From NCBI GenBank assembly GCA_040756905.1, contig JBFLYD010000009.1, positions 4,854-68,853 on the forward strand: DNA of 64,000 bases, given 5' to 3'. Source of the DNA: Acidobacteriota bacterium (GTDB lineage Bacteria; Acidobacteriota; Aminicenantia; JBFLYD01). The notes beneath the pieces were generated by a model. It was not told the origin of the DNA. It saw only the letters and a list, made by a program, of their open reading frames with translations, and searched no databases. Positions 4,815-9,714 of the stretch are shown here, piece after piece (the stretch's first letter is position 1; each line of letters opens with the position of its first letter). A program made the position numbers and the translations under genes.

Positions 4815-5369
4815 TCATCTCAACCTTTTTAATACCGCTTTTTGGATTACGGAAAATCTGTCTTTAGCCATAAAATCTTTGTATAAACTTTCTGTTAAGG
4901 AGCCTTCTGGATAATTGGTTTTCTCTTGTATAGCCATAAGCTCTGTCACGACAAGCAGGAATTCTACAGAAAATTCTCCCACTTTATCTAATTCTTTGAA
5001 TGGTTCGATATGCTCTGCTTTGAAAAACTGAAGGCTTGGTGGAAATGAATTTACAGGTTTTATTTGACTGAGCATTGCCAAGATATGGTCTTTAAGTTTC
5101 AAAGTTAATAAAGAACTATGAGCATGTTTGACATACATCTCTACAATTAAGTGAACATGAGCGGGGGTGCGTTCTCGTTTGTTTGGCTCTTGGAATTTTA
5201 CAATGAAATCGTAAGGGGATTCTGACTTTCTGCCAGGGTAAACTGCAATTTTAATATTTGTTTTTGTAGTATAAACGACTTCATCTTCTTGAAAGCGTCT
5301 AACTCTCCAAATTTTATAAGATGACTTTATGTAATAGTAAATTGCTACCAATAATTTAAATAATTTCAA
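4815..5369 (-). CDS. Hypothetical protein, last gene of the methyltransferase cassette; candidate nuclease.
   Basis: 184-aa ORF whose start overlaps the upstream stop by 4 nt. Possible PD-(D/E)xK-like pattern PYDFIV...HLIVEMYVKH. No firm family recognised. Confidence 0.4.
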   Translation of the reverse strand: MKLFKLLVAIYYYIKSSYKIWRVRRFQEDEVVYTTKTNIKIAVYPGRKSESPYDFIVKFQEPNKRERTPAHVHLIVEMYVKHAHSSLLTLKLKDHILAMLSQIKPVNSFPPSLQFFKAEHIEPFKELDKVGEFSVEFLLVVTELMAIQEKTNYPEGSLTESLYKDFMAKDRFSVIQKAVLKRLR

Positions 5370-5566
5370 TATTTTACCTCCTCTTGTACGGATGAGGGTG
5401 GACAGACCTCAATTTCTGCTCCACATTCATAACAAAACTCGACATTAAAAGTCATGCTACCAGGAATAGGGCACTCATCTAAGTCAATTCGAGATTTACA
5501 TACAGGGCATCTAATATACCATGTACCATTCTTCCTTTCTTTTGCCTTTGCTTTTCTTACTCTCAT
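5366..5566 (-). CDS. Small 4-Cys zinc-ribbon protein.
   Basis: 66 aa with CPVC...C...CYEC...C. Translationally coupled (4-nt overlaps) between the methyltransferase and the 184-aa ORF. Confidence 0.45.
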   Translation of the reverse strand: MRVRKAKAKERKNGTWYIRCPVCKSRIDLDECPIPGSMTFNVEFCYECGAEIEVCPPSSVQEEVKY

Positions 5567-7164
5567 TTTACCACCTCATAAATAAGTAGATATTGATGTG
5601 TTATTTTCAAATTATTATCTTTTTCTACTTCTTTGATTTCATTATCAGTTTTTTGTTCTTCTTGAGCTACAACTACAATTTCTTTTAACCATAAATTGTC
5701 AGAGACGATTAGATCTACTATTCTTTTGCCAAGAGGTTCAATAAATCCATCCATTCTTACATCCTGCGTTTGGACTACTAAAAATCCACCTTTGTTAACA
5801 TTAGGTAAGCTTTGTATCACGGTCTGTCTTATTTCTTCTAAATAGTGCTCAATGTTTGGCTTTAAAGGGTTATTGTTCAAAAATGTTGCTTTTATAAAAA
5901 GCAGGTCTATCTTCTTTTTCCCATCTTCTTTAGTAAAAGATGCCTGATTTTCAAAATTGACATTAAAATTTATAGTTGAGTATTTACCTCCAATTGAATA
6001 CCTATTAATTACATTTTTGTTTAAACGCTCTTCCAAATCTCTCTCAGGAAATAGCCATACCGTGGTAGTTTCAAGTTCATCTATTTTTTTCAAGGGTATT
6101 TTTTCAAATGCAGGAATAACACCTCCATAATCTAAGCTCTCTTCTCTTAAGGCTAAGGAGGGGGCAAGTGACTCGGGTTTTTCAAAAATTGGTAGATATT
6201 CGTGGGCCAAAAGGAGGAAATTATATTTTGTGCTTTTTTCATACCAAAATCCAGTAGTTTTACAATTATGCTGGCGTTTAATCACCAATTCCCTTATTTT
6301 AAACCCTGCTTCTAAAAAAACATTTATTGTTTGAAATCCTATGGGAATAACATGTTTATGTTTTCTGGTATCTCCGATAAGAATTGCGCATTTTCCGCTA
6401 GGTTTAAGGACACGGTAACTTTCACTTGCAACTTTTTTTATCTCCTTTAAAAAATCTTTAACACCAAGCTTTGATAAGTCACCTTCAACGCTAGAACTAT
6501 AATTAATGATTCCTGCATAAGGAGGGTGAGCACAAATAAGGTCAATACTATTATCTGATATATGAGAGAGAGACCTTGCATCACTTACTGAAACATCGGG
6601 TTCATAGATGGAGAAAGGAAATAGTGTTGTTGGAGGTGAAAATTTTAAATTTTCTAAGGTTAAACCTATACATGCTGGGTTGATGTCTCTAGCTATGCAT
6701 CTTCTACCAAGTAACTTCGCCTCTACTGCTGTAGTTCCACCTCCGACGAAATAATCCAAAACAATATCTCCAGGTTTTGAATATTTCAAGATTACATTCC
6801 TTGGTATGTACGGCGCCCAGTTTCCTCTATATCTTCCATCATGCGTTGCCCAATCTCCTCTTTGTTTAAAACTCCAAACAGTTGTAGTATCTTCTCTAAA
6901 ATTTTTAGGTTCCCAATATTTTATCTTCCTGAGTTTTGTGAGAACCGAAATATTGATTCCATATGCTTCGGTGATAATTTCTTCCAGTTGTCTGAAAGTA
7001 ATTCCAAACAATGTGCCAATTTCTGGATCTGGTATTCCTTTCTCTTTCGCCTTCAATACTGATTCCTTAAATTCTTTTTCACTATGTTGAGAACGTATAT
7101 GCTCCCCTAAATTTCCATAATGCGGCTTCTTGCATATAGGACATTCGCTTGTTAATTTTTGCAT
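5563..7164 (-). CDS. DNA methyltransferase of the N6-adenine/N4-cytosine family (PF01555-like) with an N-terminal zinc finger, an HTH region and a C-terminal degenerate methyltransferase-like module.
   Basis: The AdoMet motif VLDYFVGGGTTAVEAKLLGRRCIARDINP (FxGxG) is preceded by TTTVWSF...NWAPYIP. A catalytic-type IDLICAHPPYAG (xPPY) motif and VLKPSGKCAILIGD follow. The N-terminus carries a CPICKKPHYGNLGEHIRSQH C2H2-like finger. Confidence 0.75.
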   Translation of the reverse strand: MQKLTSECPICKKPHYGNLGEHIRSQHSEKEFKESVLKAKEKGIPDPEIGTLFGITFRQLEEIITEAYGINISVLTKLRKIKYWEPKNFREDTTTVWSFKQRGDWATHDGRYRGNWAPYIPRNVILKYSKPGDIVLDYFVGGGTTAVEAKLLGRRCIARDINPACIGLTLENLKFSPPTTLFPFSIYEPDVSVSDARSLSHISDNSIDLICAHPPYAGIINYSSSVEGDLSKLGVKDFLKEIKKVASESYRVLKPSGKCAILIGDTRKHKHVIPIGFQTINVFLEAGFKIRELVIKRQHNCKTTGFWYEKSTKYNFLLLAHEYLPIFEKPESLAPSLALREESLDYGGVIPAFEKIPLKKIDELETTTVWLFPERDLEERLNKNVINRYSIGGKYSTINFNVNFENQASFTKEDGKKKIDLLFIKATFLNNNPLKPNIEHYLEEIRQTVIQSLPNVNKGGFLVVQTQDVRMDGFIEPLGKRIVDLIVSDNLWLKEIVVVAQEEQKTDNEIKEVEKDNNLKITHQYLLIYEVVK

Positions 7165-7706
7165 TTTAATTATAAATATTGCGATTCTATTTAAATACTT
7201 TCATTGCTCGCTGTTTTACCCAATTTATTTATATTTAAACAATTTAGAATACATTTCTTTTTTATAAATATCCACATTAATTTTTTTACTAACTTTATCT
7301 CCCCATGCATCTTCTGCCATACCTTTTCTTTATTTTTATATAATTATTCCTGATTAAAAATCAATTTTTTCTCATTGTCGTTTTTTTAAATCTATTAGCT
7401 CTATCCTCTTTTCTTATACTAAACAGACTAATTAAAAATTAACTAGCCAGCACATTGTTTAAATCTATAGTATAATTACACTGAAGATTTATATTTTTGT
7501 TCTTATATAAATATAAAGCTCAGACATAAAATCATTGTTATAAATTTTACATAATTTTGTTGAAATTATGATAGATTGATACTAAACTCCTTAAAAAAAG
7601 AAAAAATAGTATTGAAGTGATTTTTCTATACTTTTTAAGTTCTTTTAAATTCCTTAAAATTCCTATGATTCCCTACAAATTAATCACACTCATTATGTAT
7701 ATGTCT

Positions 7707-7736
7707 TCGGGATAAAAGTAGTCCCGATATGTCGGG
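7707..7736 (-). terminator. Overlapping hairpins (tcggga-N9-tcccga and cccga-tatg-tcggg) downstream of the 7800-8315 gene; possible terminator.
   Basis: Stem-loops read directly from the sequence. On the minus strand there is only a weak U-rich segment (ACUUUUAU) after the stem. Confidence 0.3.
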
Positions 7737-7799
7737 ATTCGGGTAAATCTTCAATTTCTCTTTTATCCAATGTTAGCCACCGGCGAAATATTATTCCTA

Positions 7800-8315
7800 T
7801 CATGGCTTATTTGTTTCAATCAAAACCTTTCGATAAAGGTCATAAATAGCGTTAATTATAGGTTTCAATTCATATTTATCTCCTCTAAAAGTAAGCGCCC
7901 AAGTCGTATCTTCAAAATTACGAAGAAAATCCTCTGTATCTATTCCAGCTATCATGTTAGATAGACCAATATTTGAATCAACAAAATTATGTCTTTTAGA
8001 TGACATGATCCAAGTTTCTAATCTTTCATCAAAATGTTCAAAATGATTCCTAAAATTCCTTGGATGTATAGGAGAATTATCTTCGATACCTAAACTTTTT
8101 CTCAATTCTTCTCCCCTTTTTTGAGATTCTTTTTTTGATGGCCAAAAAATTTTAGATATATTACCAATAGCTACTAAGAAATTTTGTATCGCATACCAAA
8201 CTATATCGGAATTAATGTTTAATAATCCAGATTTTATTTCATCTATAGCAGTAATTGCAAATTTACATTGTCGCTCAATTTCTATCAGAAATATTTTTAA
8301 AACCATTTTTTCCAT
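7800..8315 (-). CDS. Hypothetical protein with a HEPN-like Rx4H motif (possible RNase, abortive-infection type).
   Basis: 171 aa. HPRNFRNHFEHFDERLE contains RNFRNH and RNHFEH, matching Rx4-6H. An isolated gene flanked by long AT-rich spacers. Confidence 0.4.
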   Translation of the reverse strand: MEKMVLKIFLIEIERQCKFAITAIDEIKSGLLNINSDIVWYAIQNFLVAIGNISKIFWPSKKESQKRGEELRKSLGIEDNSPIHPRNFRNHFEHFDERLETWIMSSKRHNFVDSNIGLSNMIAGIDTEDFLRNFEDTTWALTFRGDKYELKPIINAIYDLYRKVLIETNKP

Positions 8316-8422
8316 TTTAATTATTCCTTATTTTTCGCTATTGCATATCATGATCGGCATAAAAGAAGTTGGAAGAATTTGAGTGAGACTTTTGTGCCAT
8401 GCTAGATGCCGTTTCCGTTTAA

Positions 8423-9133
8423 CTAAAGAAGTTTTCCCAGATGCATTTCACTAGGATATTTAAATATTGGTTTAATTTTAAGTTCTAAAATAGGATGATC
8501 TGGACACGTAATTTCGATTATGCCCCCGGCACCTTGTGGCGTATCTATCTTCCCAAACGCTATGCCCTGACCATTTCCATCATAAAATTTTCCTTGGAAC
8601 TGAACGCGGTTGTCCTTAACTCTAATCTGTAAAACAATATCTCCTGTTTCATCCTTCACTTCTAAAGCATCCTTTGTAAAATTTCGATCAAATGCCTTTT
8701 CCTTTTTTATCTTCCATTCATTAGCTAGAAGTTCTGCAACCACCTCACCCTTTTTATTTCGGATTATGGTAGAAATCTTTAAATTCCCATTTTCTGTCCA
8801 GATAGTAAGACAATTATCTTCAAAGATTTTAAATAAAGGTGATCCCTCAGGGCCTCTATAGTCAAGAATTGCGCCTGAATCACCAAATTCAAATTGAGGG
8901 TATTGCTTTTCTTGCGGGTCTAATAAGATCGTTTTTGATTTATTTTCCAATTTGCCTGCATACTTTGAGATCTCTTTATCCATATATTCCTTTCTCTGAA
9001 TAACAAATTGAATAATTGCTCCTAAAATTATCAGGAATACCATAGCGATTGTGAGCCATGAAGGGATTACCCTCGGTTTAAGCCAGCCGATAATTGCAAT
9101 AATTGCCATGATTACTATTAATAAATATTTCAT
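8423..9133 (-). CDS. Membrane-anchored hypothetical protein.
   Basis: 236 aa with two N-terminal TM helices (LLIVIMAIIAIIGWL and LTIAMVFLIILGAIIQFVI) followed by a globular domain. No family recognised. Confidence 0.5.
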   Translation of the reverse strand: MKYLLIVIMAIIAIIGWLKPRVIPSWLTIAMVFLIILGAIIQFVIQRKEYMDKEISKYAGKLENKSKTILLDPQEKQYPQFEFGDSGAILDYRGPEGSPLFKIFEDNCLTIWTENGNLKISTIIRNKKGEVVAELLANEWKIKKEKAFDRNFTKDALEVKDETGDIVLQIRVKDNRVQFQGKFYDGNGQGIAFGKIDTPQGAGGIIEITCPDHPILELKIKPIFKYPSEMHLGKLL

Positions 9134-9641
9134 CTTGAACTCTTCATTTTTAGGAAATAGCTTTATCTGGGTTTATATTCGAAGTGGTTCAAACATTCCT
9201 CCATTTTTGTGTTATATCCGAATTACTTTGAACAAACATTATGTCTCTCCCTTTCAAGCTATCTTTTCTTTTTTATAATATATTATTCTTTGTTAAAAAA
9301 ATCAATTTTTTTTATCATTTTTTTCAATTTCTCAACTCCGCTCTAATATGTTAAATGTAAGTATCTCTGAGTAATTGACAAAGATTGGTGAGCTAAAAGT
9401 TTTTTTACACATCCTTAGAAATTAAATTTCCTAAAATACAGTGCGGCTTCAATATAACTTTGTATATAAGGAGAAATTTCATTTATATATTTTTGATTAC
9501 TTTGTTATTTTGGAGATGGTATTGTCCTTACATACTAAAAGACCTCCTATTATCCTCCTATTTAAACACGTTGTTTTGAAAATATTTTAAAACGACAATG
9601 ATAAAATAAGCATAATTTTACTTGGTTGAAAAAATATTAAG

Positions 9642-9714
9642 TGGAGCTGAGGGGATTTGAACCCCCGACCTCATGACTGCCAGTCATGCGCGCTCCCAGC
9701 TGCGCTACAGCCCC
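9642..9714 (-). tRNA. tRNA-Ala (anticodon GGC).
   Basis: The reverse complement GGGGCTGTAGCGCAGCTGGGAGCGCGCATGACTGGCAGTCATGAGGTCGGGGGTTCAAATCCCCTCAGCTCCA folds by hand into a cloverleaf. Acceptor 7 bp, D-arm GCGC/GCGC, anticodon stem CATGA/TCATG with loop CTGGCAG, T-arm GGGGG/CCCCT with TTCAAAT. The G3:U70 Ala identity pair is present. CCA is not encoded. Confidence 0.9.

Follow-up and report, generated by a model that had tools for sequence, protein, structure and literature searches.

A permuted DNA methyltransferase with a degenerate second module, its unannotated partner protein and a possible link to GATC in a horizontally transferred gene cassette

The window analysed here is a 64 kb stretch of DNA from an Acidobacteriota bacterium, and the locus in question, at 4815-7164 on its reverse strand, holds a methyltransferase gene, a small zinc-ribbon gene and a gene for an unannotated protein that is referred to here as the partner (Table 1). 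An earlier note on this DNA had singled out the methyltransferase as atypical, and every peptide that it quoted was recovered at its place in the translation of 5563-7164: the first TTTVW block is residues 93-97, the second is residues 366-370, and GGFLVVQTQD lies in the C-terminal part. The protein of 533 aa is 100% identical to an NCBI 'DNA methyltransferase' of an Acidobacteriota metagenome-assembled genome (MAG) and has four parts, i.e., a C2H2-type zinc finger, a helix-turn-helix (HTH), an active permuted PF01555 module and a degenerate second module. In Pfam, PF01555 (N6_N4_Mtase) matches it in three stretches with 96.3 bits against a cut-off of 26.7, and the PADLOC Type II methyltransferase model PDLC03376 (REBASE-derived, 249 positions) runs collinearly from end to end along residues 79-329 with 326 bits. 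These two matches bear out the identity that the note had assigned: judged by its sequence, the protein is a DNA amino-methyltransferase. The AlphaFold model of the whole chain has a predicted local distance difference test (pLDDT) score of 80.7 and a predicted template modelling (pTM) score of 0.82.

Table 1. Features of the cassette in window coordinates; the last row gives positions within the other loci named there.
Feature	Residues	Position	Strand	Remarks
Methyltransferase gene		5563..7164	-	533 aa, 61 kDa, ATG start; from the open reading frame (ORF) list, PF01555 and PADLOC
C2H2-type zinc finger	8-27	7084..7143	-	CPIC-x10-H-x4-H, CPICKKPHYGNLGEHIRSQH; from sequence and model
HTH	29-75	6940..7080	-	in all family members, also those without a finger
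Active catalytic module	80-335	6160..6927	-	order X-I-II-III then IV-VIII ('class E' type); collinear with L038 and L004
Conserved loop 1	100-120	6805..6867	-	KQRGDWATHDGRYRGNWAPYI; candidate target-recognition element
Motif I, S-adenosylmethionine (AdoMet) binding	139-145	6730..6750	-	FVGGGTT; family consensus LDYFvGgGTTA
Motif IV, catalytic	213-216	6517..6528	-	HPPY; invariant in 120 homologues
Conserved loop 2	298-317	6214..6273	-	QHNCKTTGFWYEKSTKYNFL; second candidate DNA-contact loop
Degenerate second methyltransferase module	350-533	5566..6117	-	no FxGxG; from hhalign against the N-terminal module
KATF in place of HPPY	425-428	5881-5892	-	in the second module
Zinc-ribbon gene, optional		5366..5566	-	66 aa, four cysteines; overlaps both neighbours, with an ATGA overlap at the methyltransferase stop
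Partner gene		4815..5369	-	184 aa, isoelectric point (pI) 9.5, unannotated family; candidate restriction or GATC-reading component
Partner paralogue in other loci		L012 4873-5442; L014 2585-3127; L015 1736-2278; L019/L020 5463-5993; L026 5049-5435

The methyltransferase is a member of a widespread, horizontally transferred family. Its best 120 database matches are full-length proteins of roughly 480-590 aa with 57-73% identity to it, and the sources named among them are Acidobacteriota, Chloroflexota, CPR3 and Armatimonadota. In the alignment of 120 homologues HPPY is invariant, FVGGGTT is nearly so, both TTTVW blocks are conserved, and both modules are retained throughout the family. The full architecture is thus common in metagenomes, and the 'new architectural variant' of the note is not confined to this genome; a literature search found no paper describing a methyltransferase that combines a finger, an HTH, a live module and a dead one. 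The N-terminal finger and HTH which the note had proposed are borne out by sequence, conservation and the AlphaFold model. In the model, a beta-beta-alpha shape at residues 6-26 (C8, C11, H22 and H27; pLDDT 70-93) is followed by the three helices of the HTH, 29-41, 46-53 and 57-68. The CCHH residues are kept in 91 of the 120 homologues, while the remaining 29 are without the finger yet have the HTH, and neither element matched a Pfam family.

The active module has its two halves in the reverse of the beta-class order. The best PF01555 stretch, residues 82-164, corresponds to the C-terminal, FxGxG-bearing half of the profile (profile positions 129-214). When the beta-class structure 2zig (TTHA0409) is aligned, its PPY half (residues 24-101) falls on query residues 191-267 and its FxGxG half (residues 226-276) on query residues 122-172. 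This swapped alignment, together with the placement of PF01555, indicates that the reversed order reported in the note, FxGxG before HPPY, is real. Beta-class enzymes have motifs IV-VIII before X-I-III with a target recognition domain (TRD) between them, whereas here the FxGxG half occupies 82-164 and the PPY half 191-267. The gamma class (M.TaqI, PF02384-type, NPPY) also places motif I before motif IV, but the profiles matched here are of the PF01555, beta type and not PF02384. Of the arrangements that the note had named as able to overturn its assignment, the canonical gamma-class one is contradicted by the profiles, and the C-terminal region is a degenerate methyltransferase copy and not the C-terminal TRD of that class.

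Such an order has been described before. In class, or topology, E, represented by M1.BcnI and M4.BstF5I, the AdoMet motif comes first and the catalytic motif follows it at a distance of less than 100 residues, without any TRD inserted; class E enzymes are found by beta/alpha-type (PF01555-like; B/D-type) profiles, and (D/S/H)-P-P-(Y/F) is given as the catalytic motif for classes B, D and E (Samokhina and Alexeevski, 10.1101/2023.12.13.571470). The reversed order, offered in the note as a novelty, is accordingly that of an existing class, and HPPY, which the note took for an unusual tetrapeptide, has a histidine already accepted there for classes B, D and E (10.1101/2023.12.13.571470). The active module has about 70 residues from motif I to motif IV, no insertion and permuted PF01555 matches, and it was assigned to class E by the published description. 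Because it has these features, matches the PADLOC model and has a relative in Fusobacterium with both the order and the tetrapeptide, neither the motif order nor HPPY is new. For the BcnI methyltransferases, circular permutation was reportedly recognized in 2002 by Vilkaitis and colleagues, and in the same year Bujnicki is said to have discussed additional permuted classes.

Two conserved loops of the active module are probable candidates for site recognition. In loop 1 the residues R102, G103, W105, T107, H108, R113, N115, W116, P118, Y119 and I120 are invariant, the pLDDT falls below 50 at 101-103 and 113-118, and the whole loop is deleted in the C-terminal copy. In loop 2 the invariant residues are Q298, H299, C301, T304, G305, W307, S311 and N315, the pLDDT is below 50 at 299-317, and the counterpart in the C-terminal copy is variable.

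The note had also proposed an internal tandem duplication whose second copy lacks FxGxG and PPY, and this is borne out by profile comparison. With profiles made from the 120 homologues, hhalign matched residues 80-335 to residues 350-533 with a probability of 96.7% and an E-value of 4.6e-10, aligning 174 of the 184 columns of the C-terminal module. The blocks brought into register are TTTVWSF with TTTVWLF, NVILKYS with NVINRYS, IDLICAHPPY with IDLLFIKATF, KPSGKCAILIGDTRK with NKGGFLVVQTQDVRM, and AHEYLPIFEKP with THQYLLIYEVVK; the second copy has lost the motif I region from beta1 to beta2. An unrelated single-module enzyme of 228 aa (at locus L004; L numbers designate the sampled loci) matches both modules, with E-values of 1e-36 and 0.002, and homologues have a separate PF01555 stretch in their C-terminal part. 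In the AlphaFold model, helices and strands succeed each other alike in the two halves, and the sheet of the second is reduced, a single strand standing where the first has beta1-3. Because of the profile match, the loss of motifs, the two L004 matches and the model, we regard the second copy as a catalytically dead homologue and not as a TRD. The chain thus contains, as pseudodimeric methyltransferases do, two homologous methyltransferase-fold domains, one of them without the cofactor and catalytic motifs.

Charge is conserved only in the active module, which weakens the suggestion in the note that DNA recognition may be the reason for retaining the dead copy. Among family members the active module is always basic, with a median net charge of +9, and the charge of the dead copy is unconstrained (pI 4.6-9.7), which argues against the dead copy as the main DNA-binding surface. 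An acidic dead copy serving as a DNA mimic or docking surface was considered and rejected, because the pI of 5.4 is particular to the window sequence. Beta-class enzymes probably need to form dimers, between whose subunits the labour is divided, in order to be active, and in MTA1-MTA9 and METTL3-METTL14 an active subunit is joined by one with an eroded motif IV, METTL3 also needing its N-terminal zinc fingers (PMC7544214). RsmC is a single-chain tandem duplicate whose copies have taken on complementary tasks and need one another to fold, and its authors call it pseudodimeric (PMC1934991). Because beta-fold relatives are thought to work only as dimers, the dead copy would most likely be a built-in dimer partner, and by this analogy we think it fairly probable that it acts as a pseudo-dimer partner completing the working unit.

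The methyltransferase is obligately linked to the unannotated 184 aa partner. Wherever a locus was long enough to tell, which was the case in about 20 species of many phyla, one archaeon among them, the methyltransferase gene immediately precedes that of the partner in the same orientation, usually with an overlap, so that the pair has the form expected of Type II restriction-modification (R-M) systems, a methyltransferase with an adjacent, co-transferred gene. The partner is 73-90% identical across phyla, and since it is 81-90% identical to the ORF following the methyltransferase in four unrelated genomes, it is more conserved than the methyltransferase itself. The search returned 486 homologue clusters, of which the best 120 are all without a functional name, and 174 representatives at the 50% clustering level. 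In a scan of one genome per species, the partner was present in 27 species, its hosts including Nitrospirota, WOR-3, Dehalococcoidia, Thermotoga, Caldatribacterium, KSB1, Omnitrophota, Patescibacteria and Archaeoglobaceae, among others. Nothing useful was found among plasmids, phages and viral contigs, a search for loci with the diverse alignment of the partner was equally unproductive, and the public names of distant relatives are uninformative, the sole functional one being 'DNA adenine methylase', which belongs to a Dam fusion.

The fold of the partner is confidently predicted and carries the conserved acidic, histidine and lysine residues D54, H71, E/D77, K81 and E149. No solved structural relative of the predicted fold was found, family-model and fold-library searches gave no significant match to a nuclease family or fold, and it showed neither an HTH nor another known DNA-reader domain. 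The fold departs from that of PD-(D/E)XK nucleases, which have an alpha-beta-beta-beta-alpha-beta core with D...(D/E)xK on its strands. A third degenerate copy of the methyltransferase was also considered, on the strength of a BLAST alignment of partner residues 19-167 to methyltransferase residues 82-239 (E about 0.01), and was rejected because profile-profile comparison gave less than 3% for both modules. Six loci carry a partner paralogue of about 180 aa between the methyltransferase and the partner (hhalign 89%, E 2e-6; shared EDF, SHKD and QE..NYPEG motifs), which may be a sign that the partner works as a heterodimer there. Two of them, L012 and L026, have an additional ORF of about 190 aa without a family match.

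Five disrupted copies of the cassette bear on the relation of the two genes. In the genomes of L027-L031, a single replacement removes the 3' part of the methyltransferase gene together with the 5' part of the partner gene (e.g., L029 4179-6387; L031 3474-5750). The left breakpoints fall at methyltransferase residue ~231, just after HPPY, or ~309, and the right breakpoints at partner residue 54-57, with D54 in the lost part. The inserted cargo is a nuclease of one of three kinds, i.e., a NucS_C/Mrr-like protein of 325 aa, a protein of 258 aa that is PD-(D/E)xK-like by eye, or a PLDc_2+DpnI_C protein of 288 aa, and it is followed by a distinct zinc ribbon of 61-69 aa in L027-L030 and by an ORF of 101 aa in L031. 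One right-hand breakpoint is common to all three types of cargo. The 225 aa 'methyltransferases' of L028, L029 and L031 might be taken for a separate architecture and were found to be truncations at residue ~231 caused by the insertion. Nucleases with a phospholipase D (PLD) and a winged-helix domain have been proposed as restriction enzymes dependent on N6-methyladenine in GATC (PMC11037411). As anecdotal evidence, the joint loss of methyltransferase and partner is what would be expected if the partner were harmful without the methyltransferase; equally anecdotally, an arriving nuclease dependent on Gm6ATC would select for loss of a GATC adenine methyltransferase. In the same source, the PLD-winged-helix enzyme Aba4572I adjoins an amino-methyltransferase of predicted CGATCG specificity and hypothetical proteins, and CbaI adjoins a hypothetical protein and a dimethyl-menaquinone methyltransferase (PMC11037411). 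Both neighbourhoods resemble L031 and may, by this likeness, be further disrupted copies. A UbiE/MenG-like gene seemed at first a recurring neighbour (in the window, in L002-4 and in the remark in PMC11037411); the two genes are unrelated, and no further occurrences were found.

A restriction role for the partner is supported by its confident fold with conserved D, H and K residues, its basic nature, its joint loss with the methyltransferase in the five disrupted loci and the tandem paralogue. That it is itself a restriction nuclease seems to us only slightly less probable than that it is something else.

The relatives of both proteins repeatedly stand beside genes of GATC systems. A single-module HPPY enzyme of Fusobacterium vincentii, 55% identical to the active module, lies in a cassette with Dam, DpnII and Mrr (L038). 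Read in gene order, distant relatives of the partner stand after Dam and a PF01555 methyltransferase and before DpnII (L006-8), ahead of an HTH-Dam protein, a PF01555 methyltransferase and DpnII (L041-42), behind a PF01555 methyltransferase and a MutH/BcnI-like nuclease (L009), and between an ORF of 218 aa without assigned function and Dam (L040); in L124-126, Dam and a DpnA-like methyltransferase face a MutH-like gene and a partner fusion. The methyltransferases with which partner relatives pair are of both the beta-class DPPY and the permuted HPPY type, and two relatives are fused, one to a Dam methyltransferase and one to a TIR domain. The TIR fusion (protein P0277, L123 4001-5167) has no methyltransferase visible within 4 kb. 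Among the five ORFs scanned at 4815-9133 in the window, there are no Dam-type (PF02086), DpnII (PF04556) or MutH-type genes.

Because these neighbours were of GATC type, oligonucleotide usage was examined, and carriers of the cassette strongly avoid GATC. The window contains 106 copies of GATC where 240 would be expected, an observed-to-expected ratio (O/E) of 0.44 (z about -10.7), a depletion second to that of CTAG, which is also the most depleted palindrome in the control set. The palindromes GTAC (O/E 0.49) and GGCC (O/E 0.62) are under-represented in the window as well, which suggests further restriction pressures in the lineage. In 13 other hosts of the cassette, pooled, GATC was observed 158 times against 524 expected (O/E 0.30, the lowest of the sixteen 4-mer palindromes), and in each of them its O/E is at most 0.62. 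The controls were drawn from 80 metagenomic loci around relatives of the aldehyde dehydrogenase of the window, of which the 42 of at least 6 kb were used; their median O/E for GATC was 0.94 (range 0.61 to 1.09), with one of the 42 at or below 0.62. Set against this 0.94, the hosts of the pair have an O/E of 0.28, and they differed from these phylogenetically unmatched controls with a Mann-Whitney p = 1.7e-8. In the pooled hosts every flanking context of GATC was depleted (O/E 0.15-0.47), CGATCG no more than the others, and since the depletion holds in every context and is not specific to one, CGATCG was rejected as the avoided word in place of GATC; in the window, contexts containing CGATC were less depleted than other GATC contexts. 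Hosts of distant partner relatives are mostly GATC-depleted too, the 6.9 kb contig of the TIR fusion having 0 GATC against 21.9 expected.

Avoidance of palindromes under restriction is established, and erosion of a site by adenine methylation alone is not known. The depletion therefore suggests cleavage pressure at GATC. From the gene context and the oligonucleotide statistics, we consider it somewhat more probable than not that GATC is the target of the methyltransferase, and with less assurance the modified base may be N6-methyladenine (m6A); the statement in the note that specificity cannot be guessed was too pessimistic.

Our best explanation is that the locus is a mobile Type II-like GATC R-M cassette, with the methyltransferase as an active/dead pseudo-dimer and the partner as a candidate restriction component, and to this reading as a whole we give an even chance. 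Two core genes and an optional zinc-ribbon gene would form a horizontally mobile unit that acts on GATC. Base flipping and methyl transfer would take place in the basic N-terminal module, whose loops 100-120 and 298-317 would read the site, and the dead copy would be a non-catalytic dimer partner in the same chain, like that of RsmC or of the METTL3-METTL14 pair. The universal HTH, joined in three quarters of members by the zinc finger, would add DNA binding or autoregulation. The product at GATC would probably be N6-methyladenine, and the partner would cut unmethylated GATC by means of D54, H71, E/D77, K81 and E149, as a nuclease whose fold had not been assigned before.

Several observations weigh against this explanation. 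Relatives of the partner are often accompanied by a genuine restriction enzyme (DpnII or MutH-like), so that the partner could be an accessory factor. Other GATC systems of these hosts could account for the depletion, the controls were not phylogenetically matched to the hosts, and L009, which hosts a distant relative, has no depletion (O/E 0.99). Class E specificities are diverse (CCSGG for BcnI; a BsaWI-linked relative in L004), and 55% identity to the Fusobacterium enzyme is no proof of the same site. Finally, the methyltransferase of predicted CGATCG specificity beside the PLD-winged-helix enzyme may or may not belong to the 533 aa family (PMC11037411).

The main rival takes up the first of these points and makes the partner a non-nuclease accessory factor, i.e., a reader of GATC methylation, a timing regulator or an activator or adaptor of a nuclease, and the methyltransferase an orphan with an accessory protein. 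Consistent with this, partner relatives sit in cassettes that already hold DpnII or MutH-like nucleases and pair with methyltransferases of both the beta-class DPPY and the permuted HPPY type, the TIR fusion resembles a sensor-effector design, and no nuclease-like fold or motif was detected in the partner. However, overlapping two-gene cassettes spread across phyla are typical of selfish R-M pairs, the GATC depletion of the hosts implies cleavage pressure beyond methylation, and methyltransferase and partner were inactivated together in the disrupted loci. Moreover, the partner has invariant D, H, E and K residues, which suit a catalyst better than a reader, and no known DNA-reader domain was detected in it. 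An accessory role is on balance unlikely, if far from negligible.

A second alternative keeps the R-M pair and changes its site, to CGATCG, another word containing GATC or an unrelated one, with the depletion arising from other GATC systems common in these anaerobic or thermophilic lineages. It draws on the several specificities of class E relatives, on the CGATCG prediction beside a PLD-winged-helix nuclease and hypothetical proteins in an arrangement like that of L031 (PMC11037411), and on the lesser depletion of CGATC contexts in the window and the want of lineage-matched controls. Against these stand the depletion of every GATC context over the 13 pooled hosts (O/E 0.15-0.47), the partner-family contexts with a recognizable methyltransferase or nuclease, all of which are of GATC type (Dam, DpnA-like, DpnII, MutH-like), and the presence of the closest methyltransferase relative in a Dam/DpnII cassette. 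We regard another site as unlikely.

Very improbable is an RNA methyltransferase of the N2-methylguanosine (m2G) type, like Trm11, TrmN or RsmC, which the zinc ribbon would activate in the manner of Trm112. In sequential structural alignment the best matches are indeed Trm11-Trm112 and TrmN (Foldseek E about 1e-10), there are weak matches to TIGR01177 and UPF0020, RsmC is likewise a tandem duplicate with a dead copy, and a zinc-ribbon gene follows. But TIGR01177 reaches 39.9 bits against a cut-off of 316.55 and UPF0020 17.9 against 22.3, compared with 96 bits for PF01555 and 326 for the Type II model; Foldseek aligns sequentially and so favours collinear folds over permuted beta-class DNA enzymes, and the likeness is that of the general fold. 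No THUMP or other RNA-binding domain was matched, relatives adjoin restriction enzymes, and the patchy, horizontally transferred distribution is ill-suited to a housekeeping RNA enzyme. The zinc ribbon, for its part, is missing from most loci and has no Trm112 family match, for which reasons a Trm112-like role was rejected; it has only sub-threshold matches to zinc-ribbon families in Pfam, and among the loci examined it is confined to the window and to one Chloroflexota contig (sampled as L005 and L017), where a 71% identical copy occupies the same slot. Least credible of all is that the C-terminal region is an ordinary TRD or an unrelated domain and the duplication an alignment artefact, as the pairwise identity of only ~24% and the ~60 residues missing from the second copy might suggest, because the profile-profile match (E 4.6e-10) is nearly full-length with all conserved blocks in register, L004 matches both halves, homologue C-termini have their own PF01555 stretch and the order of helices and strands in the model is equal.

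The partner, which lies outside the coordinates of the note and had gone unremarked there, is more unusual than the methyltransferase and the most interesting element of the locus. Beyond the cassette itself, we put forward tentatively, as a reading with rather less than an even chance, that a new structural family of restriction modules directed at GATC begins with the partner, either as a nuclease of unseen fold or as a reader of unmethylated GATC, combined in different systems with Dam, DpnA-like or class E methyltransferases, DpnII, MutH-like nucleases or TIR; the dead copy would then be a scaffold and perhaps a docking partner. If the explanation given here is true, the methyltransferase would offer a single-chain prokaryotic model for the division of labour that has been proposed for dimeric beta-type enzymes and is observed for METTL3-METTL14. 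The partner would in turn stand for a protein family, active in restriction or in GATC sensing, that has no solved structural relative and would be useful for enzyme discovery, and its occurrence in many uncultured anaerobic and thermophilic bacteria and archaea would give it biological interest. The link between the cassette and GATC avoidance would provide a testable way, from sequence only, to assign specificity to unannotated R-M genes in metagenomes.

The HTH and finger may serve DNA binding or autoregulation, a role that we infer by analogy. Some methyltransferases carry N-terminal regulatory regions, among them M.SsoII, for which a regulatory role is described, and it is to such regions that the HTH is likened. 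A conserved operator upstream of the gene was sought and rejected, no 8-mer being common to more than 3 of 14 loci, and because there is no universally conserved operator, autoregulation is put no more strongly than this. A short non-palindromic element, approximately GTTRGGCRAAACGRCGGG, lies at about 7204-7223 (-) in the window and also 20-50 nt upstream of the start in L001, L003, L014, L019 and L020, with a possible small hairpin in L003; found in this subset of loci, it could be a regulatory site or a remnant.

The surroundings of the cassette vary. It forms a two-gene unit between housekeeping genes in L005, L039 and L127 (with an HPPY enzyme in L039), and in L002-L004, which come from one organism with contigs up to 1.67 Mb, it lies in a variable defence island with an integrase. 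Depending on the contig, this island also carries AlwI-, BsaWI- and MjaI-type restriction genes, an EcoRI-type methylase, a GmrSD/HNH protein and an AAA_13 ATPase. The sole archaeal copy, in an Archaeoglobaceae MAG (L021 508-2071), has its methyltransferase split into 264 + 254 aa at residue ~275-280, inside the live module, probably by a frameshift or as a pseudogene, and its partner is extended to 228 aa. In the window, 635 bp of very AT-rich DNA separate the methyltransferase from an ORF of 171 aa (7800-8315, -), which is followed by one of 236 aa (8423-9133, -). Neither has a significant match in Pfam, NCBIfam, PADLOC or PHROGs, and both lie between the cassette and a tRNA-Ala(GGC) gene at 9641-9714 (-). 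This region beside the tRNA gene, whose GC content equals that of its surroundings, could be a small island.

Compared with known systems, the active module is closest in design to the class E enzymes M1.BcnI and M4.BstF5I, with which it shares profile type, motif order, spacing, the lack of an inserted TRD and an H/D/S-PP-Y/F motif; these enzymes are described as compact, whereas the 533 aa protein adds a zinc finger and HTH before the module and a degenerate copy after it. With beta-class enzymes (M.RsrI, M1.MboII, TTHA0409, CcrM and EcoP15I Mod) it has PF01555, the motifs and probably the need for a two-domain, dimeric unit in common, but motif I comes before motif IV, no TRD lies between the halves, and an intramolecular active/dead pair would replace the dimer. 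METTL3-METTL14, ciliate MTA1-MTA9 and E. coli RsmC likewise join a catalytic domain to a homologous domain with eroded motifs, RsmC having both in one chain. They act, however, on RNA or eukaryotic DNA and outside R-M cassettes, and the dead copy of RsmC is N-terminal, so that the likeness is a functional analogy and not a shared ancestry of the duplication. GATC cassettes of the DpnII/MboI type (Dam-type M1, DpnA-type M2 and DpnII) house members of the partner family and the closest relative of the methyltransferase, and their hosts avoid GATC; in the window locus, in contrast, the partner is the only core gene that is not a methyltransferase. The closest single-module relative is that of the cultured F. 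vincentii SB055 (NZ_CP084075.1 660134-660859; L038 4995-5729), which shares 55% identity along residues 82-329, likewise places its AdoMet motif, FIGGGT, before HPPY and is alike in the conserved loops, and which, unlike the window protein, is a single module of 244 aa without zinc finger, HTH or dead copy and stands in a locus with no gene of the partner family.

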